Notes: generated by a model from the letters alone, not told the origin. A DNA stretch of 30,991 bases from a virus (IMGVR_UViG_3300045988_126185:1-30991), one strand, 5' to 3'. Shown: positions 1,293 through 17,113, counted from the first letter of the stretch. Numbers and translations are program-made.

Positions 1293-1505
1293 ATGGAAAT
1301 TAACATGAAAAATTACAATTTAGAAAGTTTTAAAGAAAAAGATATTTATAGTTGGGAGGAGATAATAAGTATTATAGAAGACTTAGAATGTGAACTTCAT
1401 ATAAAAGAAGAAAAAATTGAAGAATTAGAAAATGATTTAGAAAGTAATTATAAAAAAATTTCACTAGCTGAACAATATGATATAAGTGATAGAGATTTTA
1501 TATAG
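1293..1505 (+). CDS. Hypothetical early protein (70 aa, acidic, coiled-coil-like).
   Basis: ORF with RBS GGGAAGGAG, first gene after P1. Confidence 0.5.
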   Translation: MEINMKNYNLESFKEKDIYSWEEIISIIEDLECELHIKEEKIEELENDLESNYKKISLAEQYDISDRDFI

Positions 1506-1517
1506 GAGGGAAATATA

Positions 1518-1637
1518 ATGGAAGAATTAAATAAAGAAATTGAAAGAGTCAAAATTGTGTTAGAAAATTATCTAACACAATATGACAACACAAAAGAAGA
1601 AATAGTAAAAGAAATAATAGAAAGAAGGAATAAATAA
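1518..1637 (+). CDS. Hypothetical small protein (39 aa).
   Basis: ATG preceded by TAGGAGGG; not in the ORF track because it is under 60 aa. Confidence 0.35.
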   Translation: MEELNKEIERVKIVLENYLTQYDNTKEEIVKEIIERRNK

Positions 1638-1933
1638 TGTTAAATCAAATAGTATTAGTTGGTCGATTAGTTCAAGACCCTGAAATAAAAGAACTAGAAA
1701 AGGTTGGCTATATAACTTTAGCAGTATCAAGAAGTTATAAAAATGCAAATGGAGAATATGATACTGATTTTATACCAGTTACTTTATTTAAAGGCATAGC
1801 TGAAAACACAAAAGTTTATTGTAAAAAAGGCGATATGGTTGATGTTAGAGGAAGAATAGAATGTGAAAATGGCAAAATAAATTTAATAGCCGAAAAAGTA
1901 TCGTTTTTATCAAGTAGAAAGGAAAGTGAATAA
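1637..1933 (+). CDS. SSB-like OB-fold protein, short form (98 aa) lacking an acidic C-terminal tail.
   Basis: N-terminus MLNQIVLVGRLVQDPE...DFIPVT...AEN...KKGDMVDVRGR matches the SSB signature. Confidence 0.6.
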   Translation: MLNQIVLVGRLVQDPEIKELEKVGYITLAVSRSYKNANGEYDTDFIPVTLFKGIAENTKVYCKKGDMVDVRGRIECENGKINLIAEKVSFLSSRKESE

Positions 1934-2151
1934 TGAAAACATCAAGAACATTTAGATTATCATCTTTTGTTGATAATACTTTAAAAAATATAAATTCTAA
2001 GTTAGGAATTAAAAAAACAACAATGATAGAATTATCAGTTATTGAAAAATCACAAAGAATGGGCTTTCTAACGCAAAATAGCGACGACGCTATAAAATGT
2101 ATAGATGAAATGATAAAAGCCCTAGAAACGGCTAAAAATAGGCTAAAATAG
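1933..2151 (+). CDS. Hypothetical protein (72 aa).
   Basis: ORF coupled by ATGA overlap to the upstream gene. Confidence 0.45.
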   Translation: MKTSRTFRLSSFVDNTLKNINSKLGIKKTTMIELSVIEKSQRMGFLTQNSDDAIKCIDEMIKALETAKNRLK

Positions 2152-2172
2152 TAAGATAAGGAGAATAAAAGA

Positions 2173-2415
2173 ATGAAAAAGAAAAGTTTAGAAGAAGTTT
2201 TAAAAGAAAATAAAAAAACTTATAGAGAAAGATTAGAAGAGCAAAGAAAACAAGCTCACAAGGAAAATATTAAAGAAACTATATTATTTTGGTTTGTTGC
2301 TATGTTTATAATAATAAGTACTATAATAATGTTAAATAATCTAAATTCAAAAGATATTAGTAGATGTGAAAAGATAGGATATAGTAAGAGTATATGCAAC
2401 ACCAACATAAAATAA
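2173..2415 (+). CDS. Hypothetical membrane protein (80 aa, one TM).
   Basis: RBS AAGGAG; hydrophobic segment ILFWFVAMFIIISTIIML. Confidence 0.45.
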   Translation: MKKKSLEEVLKENKKTYRERLEEQRKQAHKENIKETILFWFVAMFIIISTIIMLNNLNSKDISRCEKIGYSKSICNTNIK

Positions 2416-2588
2416 ATAATAAAATAGAATTAGAACAAGAACGTTTAGCTAAAATGAAATATTTATGTTCGAATATTCAAATGACATTAGAAAAGTACTT
2501 AAATATAAATAAAAAAATAGAACAAAAACAAGATAAAATAAATTTTCTTATAAAACTAAAAAAAGAGCTTGAAAAAATAGGGGAATGA
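2394..2588 (+). CDS. Hypothetical protein (64 aa).
   Basis: ORF overlapping its neighbours; coiled-coil-like. Confidence 0.3.
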   Translation: MQHQHKINNKIELEQERLAKMKYLCSNIQMTLEKYLNINKKIEQKQDKINFLIKLKKELEKIGE

Positions 2589-3214
2589 AAATGAAAAGAA
2601 AACTTAAAAAATGGGTTAAAATTTTAATTTTTATACTATTAATTATATTGATAATTATATTATTATTTTTCATTAAAAAAATAAATGTAAAAGAGCCAAT
2701 AAAAGAAAAAAATATAAATATAAAATATAAAAAGCATATTTATACAAATGAAAATTATCAATTACAAAATGAAATAGATAATTATTTAGAACAAAAAAGA
2801 ATTGAAGAAATTAAAAGAAAAGAAGAAGAAATAAAAAGATTAAATTCTATGAAAACTTATGAAACAAGATTAACGAGTTATTATTTAGGAGATAATACAG
2901 AAACAACGACTAAAACTGGTAGTGGATTAGATATTTACGATTTTGAAGTTAATAATAATGGTTGGTATACTTATCAAGGAAAGTTAGTTGTTGCGACTGC
3001 TACAAATTATCTTATAAAATATGGATTTGTATTAGGAGAAAATATTAAAACATATAAATATTATGATGAATTGGTTTTAAATATAGATGGTATTGATTAT
3101 CAAGCAATAGTTTTAGATAGCTGTGGTAGTTCAATGAAAACTGGAAGAATAGACTTGTTTGTTTCAAATAAAGAAAGTGTAAAAGATACAAAAATAATAG
3201 TAAAGGAGAAATAA
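2585..3214 (+). CDS. Membrane-anchored 3D-domain protein, a candidate peptidoglycan-binding or lytic-transglycosylase-like protein (YocH/MltA 3D family).
   Basis: N-terminal TM (ILIFILLIILIIILLFFI). C-terminal YYLGDNTETTTKTGSG...IVLDSCGSSMKTGRIDLFV resembles the 3D-domain Asp motifs. Confidence 0.5.
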   Translation: MKMKRKLKKWVKILIFILLIILIIILLFFIKKINVKEPIKEKNINIKYKKHIYTNENYQLQNEIDNYLEQKRIEEIKRKEEEIKRLNSMKTYETRLTSYYLGDNTETTTKTGSGLDIYDFEVNNNGWYTYQGKLVVATATNYLIKYGFVLGENIKTYKYYDELVLNIDGIDYQAIVLDSCGSSMKTGRIDLFVSNKESVKDTKIIVKEK

Positions 3215-3215
3215 A

Positions 3216-3428
3216 ATGTATAGAGATTTAGAAAGTAATTATGAAGAATATTTAGAAAAATCATATGAGAATGAAACAACATGTGAATTAATAAATAATT
3301 TAGAAAAAATAGATAAACAAAGAAAACAATTGGATAAAGAAGAATTATATATTATTAAAGAATTATGGAAGAGAATACCTAGTCTAAAAAAAGAAGAGTT
3401 GTTTCAACCAAAAGTAAAGGAGAAATAA
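3216..3428 (+). CDS. Hypothetical protein (70 aa).
   Basis: ORF with RBS AAGGAG. Confidence 0.4.
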   Translation: MYRDLESNYEEYLEKSYENETTCELINNLEKIDKQRKQLDKEELYIIKELWKRIPSLKKEELFQPKVKEK

Positions 3429-3432
3429 GAAT

Positions 3433-3639
3433 ATGGACGATAGAACAATAGAAGAAATTAGAAAAAATGAAACTAAACTTATAAATGAAATTAAAGTATT
3501 AGAACAACAATGTCAAAAACAAAAAGAAGTTATTGATAATATTAAAAAATGCTTTGATGATGGACATTTTGAAGATGATTGTGATTGTTTAATAATAGAA
3601 AAATATATAGATAATTATTTAAAAGAGGTATCAGAATGA
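3433..3639 (+). CDS. Hypothetical protein (68 aa).
   Basis: ORF with RBS AAGGAG. Confidence 0.4.
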   Translation: MDDRTIEEIRKNETKLINEIKVLEQQCQKQKEVIDNIKKCFDDGHFEDDCDCLIIEKYIDNYLKEVSE

Positions 3640-3968
3640 ACGATAAATGTAAATATTGTGATTATGTTTCTAAATGTTCAAGAATATGTGAATATAATAG
3701 TATTCTATGTAGAGCACAAAGGAGTTTTCCAAAAGTAGTAGATAAATCTTATGAACAATTAAAACAAGAAAACCAACAACTAAAAGATAATTGGAATACG
3801 TTAAAAGAATATATAAAAGAAACTAAATTAAAGGAATTTGAAAAATCGTATGGTAAAAGATATGGTAAAAGATATGGGAAAACATTTACTCAAGCAGAAG
3901 TAGTAGTGTGTAATATGATTTTAGGTAAAATGCAAAAAATAGAACAAGGAAGTGATAGCAATGAATAG
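3636..3968 (+). CDS. Hypothetical Cys-rich protein (putative zinc-binding N-terminus, CKYCDYVSKCSRICEY), with a KRYG tandem repeat.
   Basis: ORF; 12-nt tandem repeat tatggtaaaaga at about 3841-3880. Confidence 0.4.
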   Translation: MNDKCKYCDYVSKCSRICEYNSILCRAQRSFPKVVDKSYEQLKQENQQLKDNWNTLKEYIKETKLKEFEKSYGKRYGKRYGKTFTQAEVVVCNMILGKMQKIEQGSDSNE

Positions 3969-4326
3969 AAGAATTAAAAAATTTATAAATAAATGTTATA
4001 ACAAAGAAAAAGATGCTTATTGTTGGATTAATACTAACAAAAAATTATCAGATGAAGAATTATCCGATATAGAAAAATATTTTAATGACAAAAATTATAA
4101 CTTCATGTTGATTATTAATGGTTGTTCACAATTAAGACCACAAAGAACATGTGGAACATTACCAACATTTTTAAAAGGAATTGATGGATGTCATACTATA
4201 TTTAAAAGTTCTTCAAATGCATTTATATTGTGCAGTTGGTTAGAGGATTATGATGAATATAAAGATGATATTAAAGAGTTGTTAGATTTACCTGATATTT
4301 TAGAAGTTAAAGCATTAAGGAAGTGA
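3952..4326 (+). CDS. Hypothetical protein (124 aa).
   Basis: ORF. Confidence 0.4.
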   Translation: MIAMNRRIKKFINKCYNKEKDAYCWINTNKKLSDEELSDIEKYFNDKNYNFMLIINGCSQLRPQRTCGTLPTFLKGIDGCHTIFKSSSNAFILCSWLEDYDEYKDDIKELLDLPDILEVKALRK

Positions 4327-4634
4327 TAGTAATGAATAAAGAAGATACATTAAAACAAATATGTAAAATGATTTCTAGTGGTGATATACCAAAAGTAGTA
4401 TATGATAAATATTTATCTAAAACACAATTGGGATTTATGAATTATGAAGAATTATATGATTTTTTAATGAACAAAACCAAAAAATACGAAGAAGTAATTG
4501 ATAAAATACAAAAACATTGTGAAATAGAAATAAATGCTTCTAATTATTATTTAAAAAATCATAATAGCCAAAAAGAATTATGTCATAAAGTTGCCCATCA
4601 AATAATTTTAGATATTTTAAAAGAGGTTGAATAA
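4323..4634 (+). CDS. Hypothetical protein (103 aa).
   Basis: ORF, overlap-coupled. Confidence 0.4.
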   Translation: MIVMNKEDTLKQICKMISSGDIPKVVYDKYLSKTQLGFMNYEELYDFLMNKTKKYEEVIDKIQKHCEIEINASNYYLKNHNSQKELCHKVAHQIILDILKEVE

Positions 4635-4660
4635 ATGATTTATAAAGGAGATGATAAATA

Positions 4661-5041
4661 ATGAAATTAGAAATTGGGCAATTTGCTAGATTAAAAAGTG
4701 GTTATTCCGATGAATTAGGAATAGGTAAAATAGACTTTGTTGCTAATTGTGGAGTTGCAACAATAGATTTTAAAAATAAAAAATTAGGTGTATTTACTGA
4801 AGATATAATAAAAGTTAATTATAATATAATAGATTTAATTGAATTAGGAGATATTTTAGTTGATGACACAAATAGAAAATTAGAAGTTTTATCAATAGAT
4901 AATGAGTTAATGGTTAGAAATACAGGATTAATTTATGATAATAATTATTATTTACCGATAAAAAACATAGCAATTAAATCAGTCATAACACACGAGCAAA
5001 TGGAACAAATGGCTTATAAGGTAGGAGATGATAAAAAATAA
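4661..5041 (+). CDS. Hypothetical protein (126 aa).
   Basis: ORF with RBS AGGAG. Confidence 0.4.
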   Translation: MKLEIGQFARLKSGYSDELGIGKIDFVANCGVATIDFKNKKLGVFTEDIIKVNYNIIDLIELGDILVDDTNRKLEVLSIDNELMVRNTGLIYDNNYYLPIKNIAIKSVITHEQMEQMAYKVGDDKK

Positions 5042-5106
5042 TAAAATTATATTGTAAAAATATTTAAAATATATTATAATTTATTTAAGTTAGGAGGAAT
5101 TATAAT

Positions 5107-5799
5107 ATGGACAAAAAATCTTATTATGCTATAATACCAGCAAATGTAAGATATGATGATAATTTAAAAGATAAAGCTAAATTATTATATGGAGAAATAA
5201 CAGCTTTATGTAATGAAAAAGGATATTGTTGGGCAACAAATGAATATTTTGCTAATTTATACAATGTTAGCAAAACTACAATATCCACTTTGATTAAAAA
5301 TTTAATAGATAATGGATACATATATTCAAGTTTTATTTACAAAGAAAATTCAAAAGAAATTGATAAAAGAATATTAAGTATAACTAATGTACCCCCTTTA
5401 AAAAATTTTAAAGACCCCCTTAAAGAAAATTTAAAGACCCCTTTAAAAAATTTTAAAGACCCCCTTAAAGAAAATTTAAAGGATAATAATACAATTAATA
5501 ATACAATTAATAATAGTAATAGTTATTATTATATAGAAGAACAATTTGGAAGAACATTAGCACCTGTTGAATATACAAAAATTGATAAATGGAAAGAAAC
5601 TTTTTCAGATGATATTATTAATTATGCAACTGATATAGCTATATTAAATGGGGTTAAGAATTTTAATTATATTGATGGTATTATTAGAAACTGGAAAGAT
5701 AAAAATATAAAAAGCATTAAAGAATTAAAAAATGAAACTTTAATTGAAAAGTCAATAAAAAAAGAATTGTTTGATTACAATTGGTTAGAAGAAGAATAG
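5107..5799 (+). CDS. Replisome organizer or replication initiator (phage_rep_org_N-like wHTH N-terminus plus DnaD-like C-terminal domain).
   Basis: N-terminus YYAIIPANVRYD...LLYGEITALCNEKGYCWATNEYFANLYNVSKTTISTLIKNL. C-terminus DKWKETFSDDIINYATDIAI...NYIDGIIRNW is DnaD/DnaB_2-like. Internal direct repeats are present. Confidence 0.65.
   Translation: MDKKSYYAIIPANVRYDDNLKDKAKLLYGEITALCNEKGYCWATNEYFANLYNVSKTTISTLIKNLIDNGYIYSSFIYKENSKEIDKRILSITNVPPLKNFKDPLKENLKTPLKNFKDPLKENLKDNNTINNTINNSNSYYYIEEQFGRTLAPVEYTKIDKWKETFSDDIINYATDIAILNGVKNFNYIDGIIRNWKDKNIKSIKELKNETLIEKSIKKELFDYNWLEEE
5393..5481. repeat. Four tandem ~21-22-bp C-rich iterons (CCCC(C)TTTAAAAAATTTTAAAGAC alternating with CCCCTTAAAGAAAATTTAAAGAC) inside the replisome-organizer gene, followed by an AT-rich AATAATACAATTAAT x2 tract. 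Candidate origin of replication.
   Basis: Direct repeats read in the sequence. The poly-C runs are conspicuous in an AT-rich genome. Origins lie inside the initiator gene in lambda O and SPP1 gene 38. Confidence 0.5.
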
Positions 5800-5808
5800 A
5801 GGTTAAAT

Positions 5809-6009
5809 ATGGTAGATGATAAATTTGTAAATGATACGATTAGACAATTAAAATGTGGACATAGTTGTTATTTATTTAATCATGAACAAGTTAAGATTAT
5901 AAAAGAAAAATATAGTAAAAAAACGAAATTAGAATTAGAAATAAAAAAAGATGGAGAATATTTTATAGCTAAGCCATCTAAAGCAGTATTAAAAAGCCAA
6001 CATTATTAA
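5809..6009 (+). CDS. Hypothetical protein (66 aa).
   Basis: ORF with RBS AGAGGT. Confidence 0.4.
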   Translation: MVDDKFVNDTIRQLKCGHSCYLFNHEQVKIIKEKYSKKTKLELEIKKDGEYFIAKPSKAVLKSQHY

Positions 6010-6010
6010 T

Positions 6011-6039
6011 TTGACAAATTGATAATAAAGTAGTATAAT
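6011..6039 (+). promoter_or_regulatory. Sigma-A type promoter P2 (TTGACA-17-TATAAT) for the recombination module.
   Basis: Exact consensus hexamers at 6011-6016 and 6034-6039. Confidence 0.7.
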
Positions 6040-6043
6040 GTTA

Positions 6044-6134
6044 TTAGTGTACAGGTTAAAGTAGATTTATTGTAGACAAGAAAACCTGTACACACTAAAA
6101 TAATTTCTTGTTTACAATAAGTCTATTTTTTATT
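6044..6134 (+). promoter_or_regulatory. Structured leader with two mutually exclusive hairpins, A (6044-6057 with 6083-6098) and B (6062-6080 with 6107-6125). Hairpin B is followed by TTTTTTATT, so this is a terminator/antiterminator switch.
   Basis: Interleaved inverted repeats read directly. B has a 17/19-bp stem plus a U-tract. A encloses B's 5' arm in its loop. Confidence 0.5.
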
Positions 6135-6146
6135 AGGAGGGATAAT

Positions 6147-6743
6147 ATGAAAGGATTTGAAAACGTATCGGTAGAAGTTGCCGAAGATTTAATAGAATTA
6201 ATTAATTCTATGAAAGGTTTAGAAAAGAGTTCTAAAGTAGAATATTCTGTTCAAAACAAAAAAGGAGAATGGTCAAAAAAAACATTTAACTATGTACCAT
6301 TGGACGATATTTTAAACAAAATAAAAGAAAATAATAATTTTGCTGTAATGCAACCTATTGGAGTTGATGATAATGGTGTTAATGGAGTTAAATGTATTTT
6401 AATACATAAATCAGGACATATATTTGAAACTAATACATTTCCATTTACTTCAACTGGAAGCAGTAAAATTCAAGATGAGGGTGCAGAAATAACATATCGT
6501 AAGAGATATAGTATAGGAGCATTCTTAGGAATGGCTACTGATGAAGATACTGATGGAAACGACCCAGAAGCAAGTAATAGTAGTATAAGATTTGCAACTG
6601 AAAATCAATTAAAATTGATTAATAAATTAGATACAAATATAAAAAATAAAATTTTAGAAAAATATAAAATAACTAAAATTGAAGAATTAAATATTAAACA
6701 AGCAAGTGAAATTATTTCAAATATGAAAGGAGAAAATAAATAA
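6147..6743 (+). CDS. erf: ERF-family single-strand annealing protein (recombinase).
   Basis: RBS AGGAGGG 5 nt upstream. ITYRKRYSIGAFLGMATDEDTDGND resembles the ERF core motif and acidic tract. The track ORF from 6108 includes the leader. Confidence 0.55.
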   Translation: MKGFENVSVEVAEDLIELINSMKGLEKSSKVEYSVQNKKGEWSKKTFNYVPLDDILNKIKENNNFAVMQPIGVDDNGVNGVKCILIHKSGHIFETNTFPFTSTGSSKIQDEGAEITYRKRYSIGAFLGMATDEDTDGNDPEASNSSIRFATENQLKLINKLDTNIKNKILEKYKITKIEELNIKQASEIISNMKGENK

Positions 6744-7060
6744 TGGAAAATGAATTAATGATAGTAGAAAATAATGAATTAGAATTAACAAAAGAAGGAA
6801 TTAAATTTATAAAAAAAGTTCAAAAAGCAAAGGTTGAACTTGCTAAAATGGAAGAACAATTAAAAGATATGTTTAAAGAAAAAATGGAAGAAAACGGTAT
6901 TAAAAAATACACAAGCCCTGATGGTACATTTAAAGCTACTTATTACGAAGAAACTGTTACAAATAGATTTGATAGTACTAAGTTTAAAAAAGAAAATGAA
7001 GAGCTTTATAATCAATATTTAAAACCATATAAAAGAAGTTCTTACATAAAATTCAATTAA
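6743..7060 (+). CDS. Hypothetical protein (105 aa).
   Basis: ORF, ATGA-coupled. Confidence 0.45.
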   Translation: MENELMIVENNELELTKEGIKFIKKVQKAKVELAKMEEQLKDMFKEKMEENGIKKYTSPDGTFKATYYEETVTNRFDSTKFKKENEELYNQYLKPYKRSSYIKFN

Positions 7061-7061
7061 T

Positions 7062-7625
7062 GTGTTAGAATTTATAGAAGAAAGCCATACTTACATATTA
7101 AATGGGGAAATAATACCATCTGTAACACAAATATTACAAGACTTATTTCCTCTTAAATATGATGGTGTTCCACAAGAAATATTAGATAATAAGGCTGAAT
7201 ATGGAACACAACTACATAAATTTATAGAAATAATAGAAAAAAAGAAACCTAAAAAACCTTTAGCATATATAAAACGATATTATAAGCCAAATATATACCA
7301 AGAAGAGAGTTTAAAAGATTATTTAAAAATAAAAGAAAAATATAATATAGTTATTACTGACAGTGAAAAAAGAGTTCATTACAAAAATAAATACTGTGGA
7401 ACATTAGATTTAAAAGGCTATGTTAATAATAAAAGTGCTATAATTGATATAAAAACTATTTACAAATTAGATGAATTATATGTCAGTTGGCAAAATAGTA
7501 TGTATGAATTAGCAGATGGTAAAGTAGACGAATTATATTGCTTATGGTTACCAAAAGGAAGATTAGGAAAATTAATTAAATTAGAAAGAATAGATAAAAA
7601 ATATTTATTAGCAATAATAGAATAG
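7062..7625 (+). CDS. PD-(D/E)XK family nuclease, a putative recombination exonuclease (GTG start).
   Basis: N-terminus HTYILNGEIIPSVTQIL and CGTLDLKGY...IIDIKT (D...D/E-x-K motif); lies within the recombination module. Confidence 0.5.
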   Translation: MLEFIEESHTYILNGEIIPSVTQILQDLFPLKYDGVPQEILDNKAEYGTQLHKFIEIIEKKKPKKPLAYIKRYYKPNIYQEESLKDYLKIKEKYNIVITDSEKRVHYKNKYCGTLDLKGYVNNKSAIIDIKTIYKLDELYVSWQNSMYELADGKVDELYCLWLPKGRLGKLIKLERIDKKYLLAIIE

Positions 7626-7637
7626 GAGGAATAAAGA

Positions 7638-8039
7638 ATGGAGTTTAAAATAGGAGAAAATTTAACAATATCACAATTACAAAGTGAAATAGATAAATTA
7701 TCAAATAAAGTAAGTAAAGAATATAACAATGTAATAAGCAATAGAGATAAAATAAATTATTTGAAAGAACAATTAAAAAAATTAAAAGAAGAAGAAAAGA
7801 ATAAACCAATTATTGATGAAACAGAAAAAAAATATTTAAAAGAAGTTATTAGACCATTTAAAGACAAAGTTGAATATATAAAAAAAATAATGAATCTTAA
7901 TAAAAGTAAAGAATATATATCTATAGGAATAGAATATGAACCATCTGTTGACCTCCCATATTTTGAAAAGAATAATATGTATGAAGGAATGGAAACAGGT
8001 AAGGAATATACATTAAAGGAGTTAGGTTTAGATGAATAA
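7638..8039 (+). CDS. Hypothetical protein (133 aa).
   Basis: ORF with RBS AGGAGG. Confidence 0.45.
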   Translation: MEFKIGENLTISQLQSEIDKLSNKVSKEYNNVISNRDKINYLKEQLKKLKEEEKNKPIIDETEKKYLKEVIRPFKDKVEYIKKIMNLNKSKEYISIGIEYEPSVDLPYFEKNNMYEGMETGKEYTLKELGLDE

Positions 8040-8445
8040 AGGAGTAATTGTTGGGAGATTAGTAAGAAATCCAGAATTAAGATATACAAGTTCAAATAAA
8101 GCAATTACAAAAATAACAATTGCTTGTAATAATTCAAAAGATGATACAACATTTTTAGATATAACAATATTTGGAAAAATGGCAGAAACAACTAACGAAT
8201 ATTGTCAAAAAGGAGATATTTTAGGAATAGAATACATAGTTAAAAATTACAATTGGGAAGATGAAGAAGGTAAAAGACACTTTACATATAATTTTATAGC
8301 TAATAGAGTAGAGTTTATATCAAAGGCTAGTAAATCTACTAACAAAGTAGAAATACCTCAAGAACAGGCTAAAAATAGTTTAAATAAAGATGTATTTGAT
8401 GAATTTGGAGATAGTGTTTCTATTGATGATAATTTTCTAGAATGA
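8032..8445 (+). CDS. ssb: Single-stranded DNA-binding protein with an acidic C-terminal tail.
   Basis: MNKGVIVGRLVRNPELRYT...ITIFGKMAE...KGD...; C-terminus ...DDNFLE matches the acidic SSB tail (DDDIPF-like). Confidence 0.7.
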   Translation: MNKGVIVGRLVRNPELRYTSSNKAITKITIACNNSKDDTTFLDITIFGKMAETTNEYCQKGDILGIEYIVKNYNWEDEEGKRHFTYNFIANRVEFISKASKSTNKVEIPQEQAKNSLNKDVFDEFGDSVSIDDNFLE

Positions 8446-8885
8446 GAGGTACAGTTAAACAATTAATTCCATATATGTTGGAATTAGATGATACTAAAAT
8501 ATATGAAGTAAAAGAATATAAAGAAAAAAGAAACTTAGACCAAAATGCTAAATATTGGAAGTTATTAAATGAACTTGCACTCACATTAAAAGTAGGAGTA
8601 GAAGAGTTACATTTTAAAATGTTAAAAGACTATTCACAAAGATATGAAATTCTAGTCCCTAAAGATATAAAATTAAGAGGAATTGACTATTATGAAAAAA
8701 AATCTAAAATAATTAGAAATGGTCAAGAATTTATAGTATATCAAATATTTACACCTAGCCATGAATTAAATACAAGAGAATTTGCATTATTATTACAAGG
8801 ATTATGTGATGAATGTAAAGAACAAGGAATTGAAACACTAAGTCCTAATGAATTAAAAAAGTTAGAAGAAATGATAAGAGGTTAA
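8442..8885 (+). CDS. ninB: NinB/Orf-family recombination mediator.
   Basis: NLDQNAKYWKLLNEL matches lambda Orf SLDQNRKLWACL. Confidence 0.5.
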   Translation: MRGTVKQLIPYMLELDDTKIYEVKEYKEKRNLDQNAKYWKLLNELALTLKVGVEELHFKMLKDYSQRYEILVPKDIKLRGIDYYEKKSKIIRNGQEFIVYQIFTPSHELNTREFALLLQGLCDECKEQGIETLSPNELKKLEEMIRG

Positions 8886-8887
8886 AT

Positions 8888-9106
8888 ATGAAAAAAACAC
8901 AAAAAGAATTAATTGAAAAACATTTATTAAAAAAAGGTAAAATAACAAGTTGGGAAGCATTTAAAAGATATGGAATAACAAGATTATCACATATAATTTA
9001 TCTATTAAGAAAAGAAGACTATAATATTAAAAGTGTAAGTACTACTAAAAAAAATAGATATGGACATTATTGTACTTATAGCACATATACATTAGAAAAT
9101 GACTAA
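8888..9106 (+). CDS. Winged-HTH DNA-binding protein (HTH_36/HTH_39-like).
   Basis: ITSWEAFKRYGITRLSHIIYLLRKEDYNI motif. Confidence 0.4.
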   Translation: MKKTQKELIEKHLLKKGKITSWEAFKRYGITRLSHIIYLLRKEDYNIKSVSTTKKNRYGHYCTYSTYTLEND

Positions 9107-9386
9107 ACAAGAAAAATTAGTATATGAAAAAATAACCGAAGAACAACCATATTGCCAATTATGTGGTAGTACAAGCTATTTACATAGACACCACATTTAT
9201 TATAGAAGTCAATTAGGTTTAACGGTAGAAAAAAATATAATAGTATTATGTGATAAATGTCATAGATTAGTACATTCAAATAAAAAAGAATGGCAACCTA
9301 AGTTATTAGAAATTCAATATAAAAAATATGGCTATTTTGCAAAGGAAGAAGTCATTAAATGTAAGAAATATGGAAAAATAGCATGA
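9099..9386 (+). CDS. HNH endonuclease domain protein (zinc-binding).
   Basis: CQLCG...HRHHI...N..IVLCDKCH..VH, an HNH-type motif. Confidence 0.5.
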   Translation: MTKQEKLVYEKITEEQPYCQLCGSTSYLHRHHIYYRSQLGLTVEKNIIVLCDKCHRLVHSNKKEWQPKLLEIQYKKYGYFAKEEVIKCKKYGKIA

Positions 9387-9401
9387 AAGGAAAATGGGAA
9401 G

Positions 9402-9578
9402 ATGAGTTTTAAAAGAAAACTAGAAAGAAAAAACGAAAAAAAAGAACAATTAAATATTAAAAACACATATGGTAAAAAGCCTAAAGGAATTTGCCCTAGA
9501 TGCCATAAACATAGTATATTTATGACAAACCAAGAAAATGAAGTATATTGTATAAGATGTAATAATAGAATAAAATAA
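9402..9578 (+). CDS. Small zinc-ribbon protein (58 aa).
   Basis: CPRC...CIRC; ATG after GGAAAATGGGAAG; under 60 aa so absent from the track. Confidence 0.35.
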   Translation: MSFKRKLERKNEKKEQLNIKNTYGKKPKGICPRCHKHSIFMTNQENEVYCIRCNNRIK

Positions 9579-9697
9579 AAAAATTAAAAACTATTAAAAA
9601 AGCTAGTAAATTGTTTTTTATTCATATCACATTACCTTCTAATATAACTAAACTAATTTTACCCTTAAAAACAATGTGAGTTTGTTTAATAGTGAGT

Positions 9698-9727
9698 TTG
9701 ACATTGTTATTAATAATGTGATATAAT
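9698..9727 (+). promoter_or_regulatory. Sigma-A type promoter P3 (TTGACA-17-TATAAT with extended TGn) flanked by candidate operator repeats.
   Basis: Consensus hexamers at 9698-9703 and 9722-9727, with TG at 9719-9720. Inverted repeat TATCACATTA (9625-9634) with TAATGTGATA (9714-9723). Direct repeat GTGAGTTTG x2 (9676-9684, 9692-9700). Confidence 0.65.
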
Positions 9728-9750
9728 AATAAAAGAAAATAGGAGGAAAT

Positions 9751-10227
9751 ATGGATTATAAATTTAGTAAAATTGATTTAGACGAATATGAATTGTCTTA
9801 CACAAACAAAAACAAAGAAAAAGTAAAAATACCATTTAAAAGAACGGTTGAAATGGGACAAAAAATACAAGGAATAACTGCTAGAGCTAGAACTAAAATG
9901 TTTATTGAATTAACTAAACTAGGAATAACTAAAAATGATTTAATAATTAAAAAAAGTGATGGAAAAGGTCATACAACATATGATGAAACTAACTATCAAG
10001 AATTTGAAAGAAAATACATAGAAGAAGAGACTTTAATTGTCATGAACGAAATAATGGAGTCTTGTTTTAAAAAGAATTTAGTTGATTTATTTGATGATAT
10101 GGGAATAAATACATATTCAAATGATAAAGATAGTATAAATGTTATATCAACATTTAGCCAAAAGTTTGGGATGATACTTTCAAAAAACGATGAAGAAAAA
10201 TCTCCCAGTGCTAGCGATAAAGAATAA
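9751..10227 (+). CDS. Hypothetical protein (158 aa).
   Basis: ORF with RBS AGGAGG. Confidence 0.45.
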   Translation: MDYKFSKIDLDEYELSYTNKNKEKVKIPFKRTVEMGQKIQGITARARTKMFIELTKLGITKNDLIIKKSDGKGHTTYDETNYQEFERKYIEEETLIVMNEIMESCFKKNLVDLFDDMGINTYSNDKDSINVISTFSQKFGMILSKNDEEKSPSASDKE

Positions 10228-10582
10228 TCAAATAAGAAATAGTAATAAAACAATATTTTGTTTTGCTTATCAAGAAGATTTAGACCAAGCATACGCATTT
10301 TATTGTTCAAGATATGAAAATATAAGCTATAGAGAATTTTTAAATTTAGGATTTTTTGAATTTAAAAAGAAAATAGGAAGTATACCAAAGAGTGAGCCTT
10401 TATATGATATAATAAAATCAAGAACAATAGAACTAGGTAAAATCAAAGATAAAGAAGAACGAAAATATTGGAGAGAATTAAAAAGAATAAATCAAATACC
10501 TCAAATATTTATAAGTACTGATGAAATATTTAGAGAATTAAAGGGAAGAATGAAAGAAACTAAACAAGTAGGAGGAAAATAA
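10190..10582 (+). CDS. Hypothetical protein (130 aa); start uncertain, overlaps the upstream ORF.
   Basis: ORF. Confidence 0.35.
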   Translation: MKKNLPVLAIKNNQIRNSNKTIFCFAYQEDLDQAYAFYCSRYENISYREFLNLGFFEFKKKIGSIPKSEPLYDIIKSRTIELGKIKDKEERKYWRELKRINQIPQIFISTDEIFRELKGRMKETKQVGGK

Positions 10583-10584
10583 TA

Positions 10585-10998
10585 ATGGAAAAAAATTTAA
10601 TAAAATTTAATGAAAATATAACAAAGGTAACAAAAGAAATAGCAAAATATGAAGATGAAAAGGGAAATTATACATTGATACCAATAGGACAATTAATGTG
10701 TAGCTGTGAATATATGGAATTAGATGAACCAATGTACAAGAAAGCATTATTTGAAAAGATAATTGAAAAAGATGTTGAATATAATAAAATTAAAACTACA
10801 AAAGTAGTAGATAAATCAACAATCACACATAATAAAAAAGACCAAGGAACATTAGTAGATAATGAAGTAGAAGTAAGTCAAGTATGGGTAGTAAAAAATG
10901 GAATAGGATTAACTAAATCATTTGATAGCAAGGATAAAGCCTTACAAGTAGTAAATGAATTAAATAATAAATATTTAGAAATGGCAGAGTTAAAATAA
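10585..10998 (+). CDS. Hypothetical protein (137 aa).
   Basis: ORF with RBS GGAGG. Confidence 0.45.
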   Translation: MEKNLIKFNENITKVTKEIAKYEDEKGNYTLIPIGQLMCSCEYMELDEPMYKKALFEKIIEKDVEYNKIKTTKVVDKSTITHNKKDQGTLVDNEVEVSQVWVVKNGIGLTKSFDSKDKALQVVNELNNKYLEMAELK

Positions 10999-11222
10999 TG
11001 ATTAATGTTTTTAAAGAAAATAAAGAATTAAAAAAAGAAAACATACGATTAAAAATGAAAATAAGTGATGATGATTATTATCATAAAACTTTTTTAAAAA
11101 GAGAACAGTATTACATCAATAAAATTGATGATTTACAAGAAAAAGTAAAACAACTTCAAAAAGAATTAATTGAATTATATGAAAAGAATTATGAATTAGC
11201 AAAGAAACTTAATAAGGAGTAA
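10998..11222 (+). CDS. Hypothetical coiled-coil protein (74 aa).
   Basis: ORF, ATGA-coupled. Confidence 0.4.
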   Translation: MINVFKENKELKKENIRLKMKISDDDYYHKTFLKREQYYINKIDDLQEKVKQLQKELIELYEKNYELAKKLNKE

Positions 11223-11224
11223 TT

Positions 11225-11701
11225 ATGAAAAAAATAGAAATTAAATATATACCAATAGATGATATAAAACCTTATATAAATAACCCTAGATTAAATGAAG
11301 AGGCTATTCCTTATGTTATGAATAGTATAAAAGAGTTTGGATTTAAAAACCCTATTATATTAGATAAAAACAATGTAATAGTAGCAGGACATACTAGATT
11401 AGAAAGTGCTAAAAGACTTGATATGAAAGAAGTACCAGTTATTTATGCTGATGACTTAACTAAAGAACAAATAAAAGCATTTAGATTAGCAGATAATAAA
11501 GTTAGTGAAAAATCAATATGGGACTATACTAAGTTAGATGAAGAATTAGAAAATATTTTAGATATTGATATGAGCATGTTTGATTTTGAGAATATAGAAG
11601 AAACTAATTTAGATGATTTTTTTGAAGATAACGATAATAAAAAAGAAAAGGAGAGTAAACTTATAGAATGCCCTCATTGTCATAAGCCTATTGAACTGTG
11701 A
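11225..11701 (+). CDS. ParB-like nuclease domain protein (ParB N-terminal/sulfiredoxin fold); possible DpdB-like partner of DpdA.
   Basis: IPIDDIKPYINNPR...NPIILDKNNVIVAGHTRLESAKRL...LADN matches ParB N-terminal motifs. Overlap-coupled (GTGA) to the downstream TGT-like gene. Confidence 0.6.
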   Translation: MKKIEIKYIPIDDIKPYINNPRLNEEAIPYVMNSIKEFGFKNPIILDKNNVIVAGHTRLESAKRLDMKEVPVIYADDLTKEQIKAFRLADNKVSEKSIWDYTKLDEELENILDIDMSMFDFENIEETNLDDFFEDNDNKKEKESKLIECPHCHKPIEL

Positions 11702-12441
11702 AAGTATTTTTGGCTTCAACAAGTAGTAGAGAAAATATGGGAGAGAGTGAACTAAATAAAATTCCATATATTTTAGAAAGTTTTTATACAATAAAAAATG
11801 AAAGAACATTAAATAGAATAAAAAATATAAATAAAAAGAAATTTTTGTTAGACAGTGGAGCATTTACTTTTATGAATGGTCATAAAGGAAAAGTTGACTG
11901 GAATAAATACATAGAAGATTATGCAAAATTCATTAATAAATATAATATAAAATATTTTTTTGAATTAGATATAGATGTAGTTGTAGGTATTAAAGAAGTT
12001 GAAAGATTAAGAAAAAAGCTTGAAATGTTAACTCACAAACAATGCATCCCAGTATGGCATAAATCTAGAGGATTAGAATATTATAAAAGAATGTGTAAAG
12101 AGTATAATTATATAGCAATTGGTGGAATAGTTATAGGAGAAATAAAAAAACAAGATTATAAAGTGTTTATTCCATTATTAAAAATTGCTAAAGAAAATAA
12201 TTGCAAAGTACACGGATTAGGTTTCACGGTAACGAGAGAACTTAACAAGTATCACTTTTATAGTGTTGATAGTACAAATTGGTTGTCTGGTGGAAGATTT
12301 GGACAATTACATACATTTAATGGAAAGTTTATTGAAAGTAAAAGTTTTAAAAACAAAAGAGCAAAAGATTATAAGCAAATAGATAAACATAATTTAGAGC
12401 AATGGATAAAGTTTCAAAATTATGCAGATAAATATTTATAA
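11698..12441 (+). CDS. dpdA: TGT-like transglycosylase of the DpdA type (7-deazaguanine DNA base-exchange enzyme), lacking the Zn-binding C-terminus of tRNA TGT.
   Basis: LLDSGAFTF resembles TGT LTDSGGFQ (catalytic Asp). NYIAIGGIVIGE resembles TGT GYAIGGLSVGE. VHGLGFT resembles LMGVGTP. Short length, GTG start, and a preQ0/preQ1 transporter gene lies downstream. Confidence 0.6.
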   Translation: MKVFLASTSSRENMGESELNKIPYILESFYTIKNERTLNRIKNINKKKFLLDSGAFTFMNGHKGKVDWNKYIEDYAKFINKYNIKYFFELDIDVVVGIKEVERLRKKLEMLTHKQCIPVWHKSRGLEYYKRMCKEYNYIAIGGIVIGEIKKQDYKVFIPLLKIAKENNCKVHGLGFTVTRELNKYHFYSVDSTNWLSGGRFGQLHTFNGKFIESKSFKNKRAKDYKQIDKHNLEQWIKFQNYADKYL

Positions 12442-12480
12442 GTAGTATGCAAAAACCTACTATAAAAAACTAAAGGAGAG
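12441..12480 (+). ncRNA. Candidate preQ1-I riboswitch aptamer: P1 AGUAG/CUACU, 11-nt loop ending AC, tail AUAAAAAACUAA running into the RBS.
   Basis: As I recall it, the tail is identical to the B. subtilis queC preQ1-I aptamer tail (CUAUAAAAAACUAA). There is a 5-bp P1, and it sits immediately 5' of a YhhQ/COG1738 gene, the classic genomic context. Confidence 0.5.
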
Positions 12481-13131
12481 ATTAAAATAAAAAAAGATAA
12501 AAAAATAAGTAAATTATTATTAGGACTAATTATTTTATATACAATTAGTTTCTTGATAAGCAATATTATAACAATTAAACAAATAATTTTACCATTTGGA
12601 ATAACAATGACAAGTGCAGTTATATTATTTCCGATAGTATATATATTAAGCGATGTATTTAGTGAAGTATATGGTTATAGATGGAGTAGAAATACAAGAT
12701 ATATAGCATTTGTAAGTAATTTATTTATGGTATTAATATTCACATTAGTAATAAAACTACCAAGTGCAAGTACATTCACAGGACAAGAAGCGTTGATACA
12801 AACATTAGGAAGCACACCAAAGGTATTATTTGCTTCATTATTAGCATATTTAGTTGGAGATTTTGTAAATGATAAAATATTTGCTAAAATGAAAGAAAAA
12901 CATACTGATACAAAAGGATTTGGAATAAGAGCAATATTATCCAGTTTATTTGGAGAATTAGTAGATAGTTCTATATTCTTACCAATTGTATTTTTAGGAG
13001 TATTACCAATTAATATAATAATTACAATGGCAATAACTCAAGTAATATTAAAAGTAAGTTATGAAGTAATAATGTTACCTATAACAAAGTTAGTTGTTAA
13101 AAAAGCAAAATTATACGAAGAAAATAACTAA
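12481..13131 (+). CDS. yhhQ: YhhQ-family (COG1738) queuosine-precursor (preQ0/preQ1) transporter; likely a non-canonical ATT or ATA start after RBS AAAGGAGAG.
   Basis: ISNIITIKQIILPFGITMTSAVILFPIVYILSDVFSEVYG aligns with E. coli YhhQ SSNYLVQLPVSILGFHTTWGAFSFPFIFLATDLTVRIFG. Conserved TM1 (KLLLGLIILYTISFL) is encoded upstream of the first canonical start (TTG 12553), in frame, with no ATG/GTG/TTG available. Confidence 0.65.
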   Translation: MKIKKDKKISKLLLGLIILYTISFLISNIITIKQIILPFGITMTSAVILFPIVYILSDVFSEVYGYRWSRNTRYIAFVSNLFMVLIFTLVIKLPSASTFTGQEALIQTLGSTPKVLFASLLAYLVGDFVNDKIFAKMKEKHTDTKGFGIRAILSSLFGELVDSSIFLPIVFLGVLPINIIITMAITQVILKVSYEVIMLPITKLVVKKAKLYEENN

Positions 13132-13517: not shown

Positions 13518-13857
13518 CAAGTATCACAACACTAAAGTTATCTATAATGGAATAAAGTTCGATAGTAAAAAAGAAAGAGACAGATATATTACTTTAAAAC
13601 AACTAGAAAAAGCAGGAATAATAAAAGAATTAGAACTACAACCAAAGTTCTTATTATTAGATACAATTCATTATAAAGGTAAAACATACCCTAAAACCTA
13701 TTATAAAGCCGATTTCAAGTACTTTGATAATGAAAAGGATAAATATATAGTTGAAGATGTTAAAAGCACTATAACAGCAAAAGATAAGGTATATAGGCTT
13801 AAAATAAAAATGTTATTAACAAAATATCCTGATATAGACTTTGTTGAAGTAATATGA
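13501..13857 (+). CDS. DUF1064 family phage protein.
   Basis: KYHNTKVIYNGIKFDSKKERDRY...ADFKY...VEDVKS pattern; the ATG at 13501 is preferred over 13492. Confidence 0.5.
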   Translation: MKIKSNKYHNTKVIYNGIKFDSKKERDRYITLKQLEKAGIIKELELQPKFLLLDTIHYKGKTYPKTYYKADFKYFDNEKDKYIVEDVKSTITAKDKVYRLKIKMLLTKYPDIDFVEVI

Positions 13858-13863
13858 TATAAT
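13855..13863 (+). promoter_or_regulatory. Extended -10 element TGATATAAT, the same 9-mer as in P3, overlapping the DUF1064 stop codon, with a weak -35 (TAGACT). Candidate promoter for the structured leader and the packaging genes.
   Basis: Sequence motif. Downstream TAATGTGATG (13864-13873) repeats the P3 operator-like half-site. Confidence 0.35.
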
Positions 13864-14241
13864 TAATGTGATGGAAAAAGTGTTTTACAATTTCCTTGCA
13901 TGCTATCTTTATAGGTAGCATAGAGTAGATAACAAATTACTACGGTGAGCTAGATAGCCGACTACATTATCTATTCTATGGTGTCTATAAGGCACTAGAA
14001 ATTCTTATTTTATTTGCTATACGAACTCTGAGAGGATAAGATAGTAAATAGCATTACCTTTAACAGGTAGTGTCTAATGATATATAAAAAGAGAGAAGTA
14101 AAGAGGTATCGTTCAAGAGTAATTAACTTGTTCGCTTTAGGAAATAGTTAGATAAGCCCTTGTATACTAACTTATAACAAGGTCAAACCTTTATATCATT
14201 AGACAGTATCTATTAAAGATACAAAGAAAGGAATTAAAATT
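13864..14241 (+). ncRNA. About 380-nt ORF-free, GC-richer structured region upstream of the packaging genes. Candidate long 5' leader, ribozyme-like RNA or degenerate group-I-like element.
   Basis: No ORF in any frame. Base composition is distinct from the flanks. It contains a GCCGACUACA (group I R-like) element and shares AAGGUCAAAC with the tape-measure intron. Confidence 0.3.
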
Positions 14242-14487
14242 ATGGCTAGAAAAAAAGATACAAAAAAAGGAATTAAAACTGAAAAAGAAATTATTTCTTT
14301 AGATAATTCTCCAATATCTCCATTGATACAAGAAGAAAAAGAAATAATACCAGAAAAGTTTGTAAACATTACACCAAAAAAAGTAGAACATAAAAATAAA
14401 ATTAATATTAAAAATAAAAGAGTGTATAAAGACTTAGGAAATGGATATGGAATGTATTCAGATGATGGGTCTATATTTAAAATATAG
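14242..14487 (+). CDS. Hypothetical protein (81 aa, Lys-rich).
   Basis: ORF with RBS AAAGGA. Confidence 0.45.
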   Translation: MARKKDTKKGIKTEKEIISLDNSPISPLIQEEKEIIPEKFVNITPKKVEHKNKINIKNKRVYKDLGNGYGMYSDDGSIFKI

Positions 14488-16759: not shown

Positions 16760-17113
16760 ATGATAAAATTACTTAAAAATACGATAGAAAATATAAGTGC
16801 TTTTTTTACTAATATTTGTGACGAAATTGTTAAAAAAATACAAAAAATAAAAAAATATTATGAAAATAGTAAAAAATGGAAATTATATCTCTATTTAAAC
16901 GGACAATGTATTAAATGTTTAAAAATAGATAAAGACTTCGCTCCAATGAATAAAATTTATGTAGTAAAAGTTAAAAATATGGAACATCTATTAGGCACAA
17001 ATAAACCTGTACAAATAGTTGTTAGAAGTTATAAGTATAAATATACTGATGAAGTTAAAAAAACGGCTCATATAGAAGTTATTATATACGAGGGGGTGGA
17101 AATAAATGAATAA
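16760..17113 (+). CDS. Hypothetical protein (117 aa).
   Basis: ORF with RBS AAAGGAGG. Confidence 0.45.
   Translation: MIKLLKNTIENISAFFTNICDEIVKKIQKIKKYYENSKKWKLYLYLNGQCIKCLKIDKDFAPMNKIYVVKVKNMEHLLGTNKPVQIVVRSYKYKYTDEVKKTAHIEVIIYEGVEINE

Follow-up and report, generated by a model that had tools for sequence, protein, structure and literature searches.

What decides whether RNA polymerase that leaves a strong phage promoter continues into the recombination genes behind it? This question is raised by the intergenic leader ahead of the erf gene in IMGVR_UViG_3300045988_126185:1-30991, a viral stretch of 30,991 nucleotides (nt) that we analyzed as a whole and call the window. An earlier note on this DNA had picked out four arms behind a promoter, P2, in the order L1, L2, R1, R2, and had proposed that L1-R1 (helix A) and L2-R2 (helix B) are alternative hairpins, an antiterminator and a terminator gating the genes erf, exo, ssb, and ninB. 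Based on the analysis below we lean towards reading the region as a two-state leader RNA, conserved and cis-acting, which functions as a promoter-proximal transcription attenuator. The anatomy of the leader, its conservation, covariation, strand, and folding order are demonstrated in the following sections.

Two Interleaved Helices Follow a Consensus Promoter

All four arms are located where the earlier note had placed them (Table 1). Using an inverted-repeat search, we found a helix A core of 11 perfect base pairs (bp) between 6047-6057 and 6083-6093. The longer pairing that had been described, 6044-6057 with 6083-6098, is correct for this core only: beyond a 2-nt bulge, the outer pairs (6044-6046 with 6096-6098) involve bases at or ahead of the predicted transcript start, and no comparable extension was seen in the bases flanking the core in relatives. 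Helix B, which is interleaved with helix A, comprises up to 26 bp between 6058-6083 and 6104-6129. Of its 19 core positions 17 had been counted as paired; as RNA all 19 are, both "mismatches" being G-U pairs, and the helix extends to 26 nt. The loop closed by A is 25 nt long in the window and 25–31 nt over the lineages described below, and the loop closed by B measures 20–24 nt. The first four U of the tract that follows B are able to pair with the A tract at 6058-6061, and the whole leader has a length of about 85 nt.

The promoter that had been noted upstream of the arms is indeed present and is strong: P2 reads TTGACA-17-TATAAT at 6011-6039 and scores 12/12 against the consensus in a promoter scan of the window. 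Judged by its sequence, the promoter of this promoter-plus-leader cassette is a near-consensus sigma-A-type promoter, and the transcript is predicted to start at 6046/6047.

The arms stand out against the rest of the window. The only recurrence of the L2 19-mer is R2, with 0.03 matches expected, and the only exact recurrence of the L1 11-mer is R1. For L1 about 0.2 matches are expected, and 0/100 shuffles reach 3; a single 10/11 match, at chance level, occurs at 17004. Among the 53 local inverted repeats in the window helix B is the second longest. RNA folding, which the earlier note had named as a check, gave a minimum free energy (MFE) of −30.1 kcal/mol for the plus strand of the region (z = −4.35), a value that none of 200 shuffles equaled, and just −17.7 kcal/mol for the opposite strand.

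Both Helices Are Maintained Across Lineages

The cassette is present in at least six further lineages of uncultured Clostridia-type phages (L185, L028/L194, L024, L027/L032/L086, L025/L030, and L034), which were reached by three independent routes: the Erf protein, a DNA pattern on the lower stem, and the C-terminus of the replication initiator. The Erf route led to L002/L028 in IMG/VR and, in a large protein collection, to L185, whose Erf is 92% identical, and L188-L194; the DNA pattern led to L024, L025/L026, L027/L032/L086, and L030, as well as to L034 in a Clostridia metagenome-assembled genome (MAG). Apart from this one MAG, the sources are mostly Logan, ENA, and IMG/VR assemblies. Seven lineages were compared, namely the window, L185, L028, L024, L027, L025/L030, and L034.

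In all seven, the promoter has the form TTGNNN-17-TATAAT, and the first base of helix A lies 6–7 nt past the -10 hexamer, i.e., at the expected +1. The leader follows a common plan, in which L1, 0–5 nt, a 24–26-nt 5′ arm of B, 0–1 nt, R1, an A-rich linker of 10–13 nt, and R2 succeed each other, and U5–6, a purine, and U(U) are kept after B in every lineage. The cassette is always on the coding strand, past the replication genes, at the junction with the next module.

Compensatory changes preserve the two interleaved helices described in the earlier note. For helix B, 97.4% of the alignment cells are paired and eight pairs have changed on both sides, values that 0/500 shuffles reach, while slid registers used as a control are 39–49% paired. 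In L185, whose retrieval did not depend on the leader sequence, a U-A pair within the otherwise invariant lower stem is swapped for A-U, and in L192 an A-to-G change in R2, at the base equivalent to 6125, keeps a U-G pair. Helix A occurs in six different sequences, each of which forms 8–11 clean bp with its own partner, whereas cross-pairing between lineages does not exceed 7, except for the close relatives L025/L030 with 9. RNAalifold applied to the 5′ part of the leader recovers A, with 5/9 pairs compensated. We conclude from the sequences that selection maintains both helices in at least seven lineages.

The same alignments identify the strand. Over both stems the lineage representatives have 167 Watson-Crick pairs, 17 G-U pairs, and no mismatch; the L086 variant adds one C-A pair. 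All irregularities in B and all but one in A are G-U. Since a G-U pair on the plus strand would be a C-A mismatch on the other, this asymmetry and the fixed distance to the promoter argue that the functional form is the plus-strand transcript, and not an operator, a cruciform, or a chance palindrome. A role as operators, origin, or cruciform, or a palindrome arisen by chance in AT-rich DNA, would fit with the adjacent replication initiator gene and with the nearly invariant lower stem, TAGATTTAT(T/A)G, of which some relatives carry a third copy, TAGACTTAT, after the U tract; given the covariation in both helices, the restriction of every B irregularity to G-U on the plus strand only, the fixed spacing to a conserved promoter, the shuffle controls of fold and arm recurrence, and the likelier origin repeats at 5396-5482 inside the initiator gene, we regard a DNA-level element or chance as largely refuted by the sequence comparison.

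A third element, TTAGAC or TTAGAT, stands directly past the U tract in L024, L025, L027, L030, and L034. It is complementary to the GUCUA end of R2 and in L025 reaches TAGACTTAT; the window has a weak counterpart at 6122-6137. By its sequence, this element could form a small hairpin with GUCUA in readthrough transcripts, with the U tract as the loop, locking R2 away from L2. The window version offers just UCUA/UAGG, with 4 bp possible, and overlaps the ribosome-binding site.

The Cassette Is an Optional Unit

In relatives the cassette directly follows the initiator gene, and the genes after it differ between lineages. Some have Erf; in others a protein of 276–303 amino acids (aa) is followed by a RecT-like open reading frame (ORF) of 239–259 aa, labeled so from its sequence alone with no search behind it, an ORF of 218–220 aa, and an SSB-like ORF. 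Further sets consist of another annealing-protein candidate with an SSB-like ORF, or of small ORFs without a named function. Conversely, many Erf relatives have neither promoter nor leader, and erf abuts the upstream gene there, so promoter and leader are an optional unit, the two parts of which come and go together.

The initiators (C-termini compared for window 5766-5799 and for the relatives L024-L030 and L154-L181) differ in their N-terminal domains and have in common a C-terminal DnaB_2 domain with the tail (E)(L/I)FDYDWL(N/E). Where the cassette is present, its -35 hexamer overlaps the last initiator codons or comes immediately after them, and the junction between initiator and cassette looks like a recombination boundary between modules.

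Searches beyond these lineages did not enlarge the family. Against cultured phages, neither Megablast nor blastn gave more than chance and promoter-like matches, whether the query was the region or the leader of a relative. The exact helix A sequence had no match in IMG/VR, as follows from its being lineage-specific. A covariance model of the B structure, run over 99 further loci (relatives of the initiator, of its C-terminus, and of Erf), retrieved only the lineages already described, and relatives of the first gene after the L027 leader yielded one new locus, in unrelated high-GC DNA and with no leader. Most pattern matches in genomes and metagenomes were rejected as unrelated palindromes on inspection.

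Helix A Forms First and Helix B Is the Equilibrium Fold

As long as R2 has not been synthesized, all seven lineages tested have helix A as their MFE structure, with a pair probability of 0.93–1.0. Its formation is unaffected by 60–200 nt of upstream RNA, which rules out that L1 is sequestered by upstream RNA in readthrough transcripts. In the full-length leader the probability of helix A is 0 and B is the equilibrium fold, again in all seven. The stem 6062-6125 has −23.8 kcal/mol, or −27.9 kcal/mol with the pairs between A tract and U tract; for full B we obtained −27 to −30 kcal/mol, and for the terminator stem −24 to −30 kcal/mol. In the landscape of nested, pseudoknot-free structures each B pair crosses each A pair, and the direct barrier from A to B amounts to 15–20 kcal/mol. 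The order assumed in the earlier note, A first and B favored later, is thus reproduced by folding in 7/7 lineages, and it is the order that an antiterminator/terminator pair requires.

The connecting segments had been called too short for a pseudoknot. This holds for the full-length helices; A may, however, coexist with the upper 14–18 bp of B. According to a rough estimate (helix stacking energies plus a penalty of 9.6 kcal/mol, with simple reach geometry), A sterically excludes the bottom 7–9 bp of B, beside the U tract, and an H-type pseudoknot of A and upper B has about −27 to −32 kcal/mol, compared to −27 to −30 kcal/mol for full B. R1 follows L2 after 0–1 nt and L2 follows L1 after 0–5 nt in all lineages, and the A-rich linker of 10–13 nt should be long enough to span helix A in the partial pseudoknot. 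In every lineage the loop-side end of A is G-C rich and the base of B A-U rich, so that exchanging A pairs for B pairs is expected to be unfavorable. As read from the sequences, A and B share at most 1 nt, and their exclusion is apparently topological, with the 5′ arm of the terminator being the loop of the antiterminator. We know of no described example of this exclusion principle.

A Model for Promoter-Proximal Attenuation

From these data we infer the transcript start, termination at B, its blockage by A, and the direction of control as follows. Transcription would start at about 6046/6047, and L1, the first 11 nt, would pair with R1 once R1 clears the polymerase, giving helix A with a 25-nt loop that is the 5′ arm of B. 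R2 would emerge about 10 nt later and could pair with the upper part of L2; while A stands, the bottom 7–9 bp of B would stay open, as L2 would be tethered at both ends to the base of A. With A in place, the polymerase would continue into the genes erf, exo, ssb, and ninB. Were A kept from forming, B would close fully (−27 to −30 kcal/mol) before UUUUUU and the transcript would end at about +85. Capture of L1 or R1 in the interval of about 36 nt before A forms would therefore switch the operon OFF.

Helix A is best read as a self-sufficient, kinetically favored antiterminator whose loop consists of the terminator's 5′ arm. The antiterminator role assigned to it before agrees with its early formation and its incompatibility with the base of B; the helix needs no stabilizing protein. 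The folding results suggest that the default state is probably ON, i.e., readthrough, and that regulation probably works by blocking A: since A is strong unaided (8–11 clean bp, probability of about 1, barrier of 15–20 kcal/mol), a regulator more plausibly blocks than supports it. Moreover, an RNA partner is a likelier selector than a protein, because A needs no stabilizer and differs in sequence from lineage to lineage, in contrast to the nearly invariant base of B.

Helix B is best read from its sequence as an atypical intrinsic terminator with a long stem, a 20–24-nt loop, and a conserved U tract. The terminator proposed in the earlier note has in its favor that a stable stem is immediately followed by a U-rich tract (U5–6 and a further U-rich stretch), as in intrinsic terminators. 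Several points weigh against the attenuator. Typical intrinsic terminators have a short loop (3–8 nt) and a G+C-rich stem, whereas B has a loop of 20–24 nt and an AU-rich base, and a consensus terminator scan of the window did not call it. Should A form every time, as the folding suggests, a selector would be needed for the terminator ever to act, and none was found: the window has no recognizable gene for an antiterminator, a repressor, or an RNA-binding regulator (Pfam and PHROGs on the scanned ORFs). Upstream in relatives three proteins are conserved, one of 110 aa, one AbrB-like, and a small helix-turn-helix one; as all are absent from the window, they were rejected as selectors. No conserved antisense promoter was read in the window scan or in the sequences of relatives. 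The partial pseudoknot of A and upper B may be as stable as full B, in which case the final state could be a static structure and not a switch. The family is small, with about seven lineages, several of which were found by a pattern that fixes the lower stem. Finally, the start of the transcript and its two possible fates, termination at the U tract or readthrough, are predicted.

Search for a Selector

The earlier note had left the choice between a phage protein and a small RNA as the selector; neither the proteins scanned nor copies of the arms in the window provided a candidate. Beyond SSB-type genes and the initiator C-terminus, cassette-bearing phages share no protein that we detected. 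No ANTAR- or PRD-domain gene was present among the ORFs scanned, and Pfam and PHROGs matches for the ORFs between 1293 and 13131 included no Q-like family; a Q-binding element is unrecognizable without a known Q. Apart from the chance match at 17004, the window holds no second copies of L1, R1, or L2 that might act as partners in trans. The window scan found no suitably placed minus-strand promoter of at least 10/12, and the reverse strands of relatives contain no conserved -10 hexamer.

Known leader classes were likewise not recognized. Leader-peptide attenuation was rejected, as the only ORF, from a GUG at +1, has 3–9 codons and is not conserved. Nothing in the whole window matched Rfam 15 at gathering thresholds, and a permissive Rfam search of 5950-6200 returned just generic long-hairpin (miRNA precursor) and other matches far below threshold. 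A by-eye search for T-box, TRAP, HutP, PyrR, and RAT-like features found nothing conserved across lineages. Helix A is a single perfect stem of 8–11 bp with a loop of 25–31 nt and no overlap with the terminator arm; the leader contains neither the two hexaloop hairpins of ANTAR targets nor the imperfect hairpin of about 29 nt overlapping the terminator that characterizes RAT.

One specific version of the attenuator, which we consider distinctly improbable, is that the leader regulates itself, with L1 and R1 of B-fold leaders pairing in trans with nascent leaders and forcing termination at B. Early transcripts would fold A and read through, and later terminated or B-relaxed leaders would expose the R1 loop and the L1 5′ tail. 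If true, this would constitute a protein-free, self-amplifying shut-off timer for the recombination module, and the sequence of helix A would set the specificity, so that there would be no cross-talk between co-infecting relatives.

Alternative Functions of the Leader

Outside the attenuator model, the alternative that fares best is a small-RNA gene, although we still consider it unlikely. Promoter, about 85 nt, and terminator would make a short stable RNA acting in trans, whose B fold would be a long hairpin with R1 in the 20-nt loop and L1 as a free 5′ tail. Possible targets would be nascent copies of the same leader, in which blocking of A leads to termination and a self-limiting, lineage-specific shut-off. 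This would explain that promoter and terminator always occur together and that the cassette is dispensable for having erf, that R1 lies in an essentially unstructured loop in the B state, and that helix A is lineage-specific, as a specificity determinant would be. However, the folding leads one to expect that most transcripts carry A and continue past B, which would leave little short RNA at first, and barring the chance-level match at 17004 the window has no other target for L1 or R1. The P4 CI RNA is a precedent for a leader-derived RNA that acts on its own locus, but the leader does not match the c4/CI family of Rfam. A second precedent is IsrK of the Gifsy-1 prophage, a terminated leader RNA which acts in trans on the readthrough isoform (PMC4825925).

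Somewhat less probable is a static 5′ structure, in which the pseudoknot of A and upper B, or A as a 5′-terminal hairpin, shields the recombination mRNA from 5′-end-dependent decay (RNase J1 or Y type). The U tract would then merely be the partner of the A tract, with no regulated termination. 5′-terminal stem-loops stabilize mRNAs in Bacillus, and in all lineages helix A begins flush with the predicted +1, leaving no 5′ overhang. By the energy estimate the partial pseudoknot (about −27 to −32 kcal/mol) is at least as stable as full B, and the linker of 10–13 nt has about the length for crossing a stem of 8–11 bp. On the other hand, the bottom 7–9 bp of B, which are incompatible with A, are the best conserved, as illustrated by the compensatory change in L185 and the wobble-preserving one in L192. 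In addition, the conserved U run is longer than the A tract, and a second helix of 25 bp would be superfluous for a simple stabilizer.

Less probable again is a processing site or timer. Polymerase would read through via A, and slow refolding to the 25–26-bp B would yield an RNase III substrate, cleavage of which would part upstream and downstream mRNAs or start decay of the recombination mRNA. Duplexes of 24–26 bp are in the size range of RNase III substrates; B is an uninterrupted duplex of this length with only G-U irregularities, and it is the equilibrium fold while A is metastable. The conserved U tract exactly at the foot of B is left unexplained, and we judge such a function to be quite unlikely.

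Marginally less credible still is factor-dependent antitermination of the lambda PR'-tR' kind, with a default stop at B and a phage protein, either Q-like or A-stabilizing, that lets polymerase pass; this is the version of the earlier note with a phage protein as the selector. A strong constitutive promoter with a terminator nearby would be in line with it, as would the -10-like hexamers (TAAAGT, TAAAAT) at about +11 to +18 in most lineages. Such hexamers near the start could give a sigma-dependent pause, but at 24% G+C they are expected by chance. Furthermore, A forms unaided with a probability of about 1 and a barrier of 15–20 kcal/mol, the window yielded no antiterminator family, Q-like or other, and the only proteins shared by cassette-bearing phages are SSB-type genes and the initiator C-terminus. 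We regard this option as very unlikely.

Comparison With Known Attenuators and Phage RNAs

Terminator/antiterminator attenuators are found in Firmicutes, e.g., the trp/TRAP, pyr/PyrR, bgl-sac RAT, and T-box leaders. The phage leader resembles them in being promoter-proximal, in having a terminator-like hairpin with a U tract before the first gene, and in containing an earlier, incompatible helix. In those attenuators, however, part of the terminator's 5′ arm also belongs to the antiterminator, whereas the helices of the phage leader share at most 1 nt. The phage leader also lacks conserved protein-, tRNA-, or ligand-binding features, a leader peptide, and an Rfam match; its helix A needs no stabilizer, and the antiterminator lies at the very 5′ end of the transcript, a difference from known attenuators.

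In its mode of action, the leader by our analysis would work most like the attenuators triggered by antisense RNA in the plasmids pT181, pIP501, and pAMbeta1. In both, the default fold of the leader prevents the terminator, and termination follows capture of the nascent 5′ part by RNA, as proposed here for the phage leader. The pT181-type systems encode the countertranscript from a promoter on the opposite strand, whereas no conserved one was read in the phage leader.

Among phages, the CI RNA of P4 brings about premature termination by pairing with complementary sequences of its own leader. Like the P4 CI, P1/P7 c4, and N15 CB RNAs, the leader described here has internally complementary segments, and in those systems RNA–RNA pairing decides premature termination, with the specificity residing in short complementary boxes. 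They differ in that they belong to Gammaproteobacteria hosts, are processed from longer transcripts, and control immunity or lysogeny genes and not a recombination module, and there is no match in sequence or structure. The combination of a strong phage promoter with a terminator close behind is also seen in lambda PR'-tR'/Q and HK022 put. The put RNAs of HK022 are promoter-proximal hairpins that act in cis on polymerase. They are, however, consecutive and processive on distant terminators, while the helices of the phage leader are interleaved, and no Q-like gene was found. In the IsrK system of the Salmonella Gifsy-1 prophage, one promoter yields two RNAs that differ in structure, a short one that is terminated and an mRNA made by readthrough, and the short form acts in trans on the long one (PMC4825925). 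In that prophage the activated step is translation of the long isoform and termination is not the regulated one (PMC4825925); sequence and host are unrelated to those of the leader described here.

A search of the literature found nothing on this leader motif, and judged by the sequence comparisons the leader is a real, conserved, so far undescribed phage RNA that is a member of no family tested. Gene timing is little known in uncultured Clostridia-type phages of gut and other anaerobic communities, and a conserved RNA device at the junction between replication and recombination would be a rare handle on how such phages schedule expression with nothing but the host's polymerase. With about 85 nt the motif is compact; it is unusual as RNA engineering, exists in natural compensatory variants, and is accessible to direct tests in vitro. 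Even if it were just a stabilizer or processing site, it would be a new conserved phage RNA motif outside Rfam.

Genetic Context of the Leader

The coordinates of the leader and its neighborhood are listed in Table 1. That erf/exo/ssb/ninB genes follow the leader, as the earlier note had stated, is supported by Pfam and PHROGs matches. Neither helix A nor helix B sequesters the Shine-Dalgarno sequence or the start codon of erf.

Table 1. Position of the promoter, the leader elements, and the adjacent genes in the window.
Feature	Position	Strand	Remarks
DnaD-like replication initiator	5107-5799	+	upstream gene; C-terminus ELFDYNWLEEE; Pfam and PHROGs matches
Small ORF	5809-6009	+	follows initiator; last base 1 nt before -35 hexamer
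Intergenic stretch	6010-6146	+	between small ORF (5809-6009) and erf (6147-6743)
Promoter P2	6011-6039	+	-35 TTGACA 6011-6016, 17-bp spacer, -10 TATAAT 6034-6039
L1, 5′ arm of helix A	6047-6057	+	GTGTACAGGTT = GUGUACAGGUU; extreme 5′ end of predicted transcript
L2, 5′ arm of helix B	6058-6083	+	core of the earlier note 6062-6080; loop of helix A in A state
R1, 3′ arm of helix A	6083-6093	+	AACCTGTACAC = AACCUGUACAC; within loop of helix B
A-rich linker R1-R2	6094-6103	+	10–13 nt over lineages
R2, 3′ arm of helix B	6104-6129	+	core of the earlier note 6107-6125
U tract	6126-6134	+	TTTTTTATT = UUUUUUAUU; followed by AGGAGG
Shine-Dalgarno AGGAGG	6135-6140	+	erf start ATG 6147-6149
Erf	6147-6743	+	first gene after leader; Pfam and PHROGs matches
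RecE-C-like ORF	6743-7060	+	downstream; Pfam and PHROGs
Exonuclease-like ORF	7062-7625	+	downstream; Pfam and PHROGs
ORF without named function	7638-8039	+	between exonuclease-like ORF and SSB
SSB	8032-8445	+	downstream; Pfam and PHROGs
NinB/Orf	8442-8885	+	downstream; Pfam and PHROGs

The phage appears from its sequence to have no close cultured relative. Its terminase is about 26% identical to the terminases of Clostridium tetani phages, and no nucleotide match was obtained among 50,697 phage records. Near-identical phages are present in samples such as ERR11457059, SRR30770036, and ERZ28565326. No integrase, repressor, or antiterminator was recognizable among the ORFs scanned (1293-13131; Pfam, PHROGs). 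Three perfect TTGACA-17/18-TATAAT promoters on the coding strand, at 1231-1259, 6011-6039, and 9698-9727, split the early region into three blocks, and the two-helix leader follows only the middle one.

Besides the full SSB, the window encodes a short SSB-like ORF of 98 aa with an OB fold only at 1637-1933. A similar short SSB gene lies directly upstream of the leader or of erf in relatives (L185, 2033-2350; L199, 31-336). At 11225-12441, a ParB-like nuclease gene is followed by a queuine tRNA-ribosyltransferase-like (DpdA-like) gene, a pair whose sequences suggest 7-deazaguanine modification of the phage DNA. The packaging genes are preceded by 385 non-coding nt (13857-14242) that seem G+C-rich relative to this phage and contain a 30-nt inverted repeat (14055-14084 with 14192-14221, 87% complementary, arms 107 nt apart) plus other hairpins. 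Nothing in this stretch was found at Rfam gathering thresholds; its sequence would be compatible with a structured RNA or with a pac/cos region.

The initiator gene itself (5107-5799) carries tandem and inverted repeats of TTTAAAGACCCC(C)TTTAAAAAATTTTAAAG at 5396-5482. These repeats are iteron-like, encode a repeated PLK(E/N)NFKD peptide, and probably represent a replication origin inside the initiator gene, as in lambda O.

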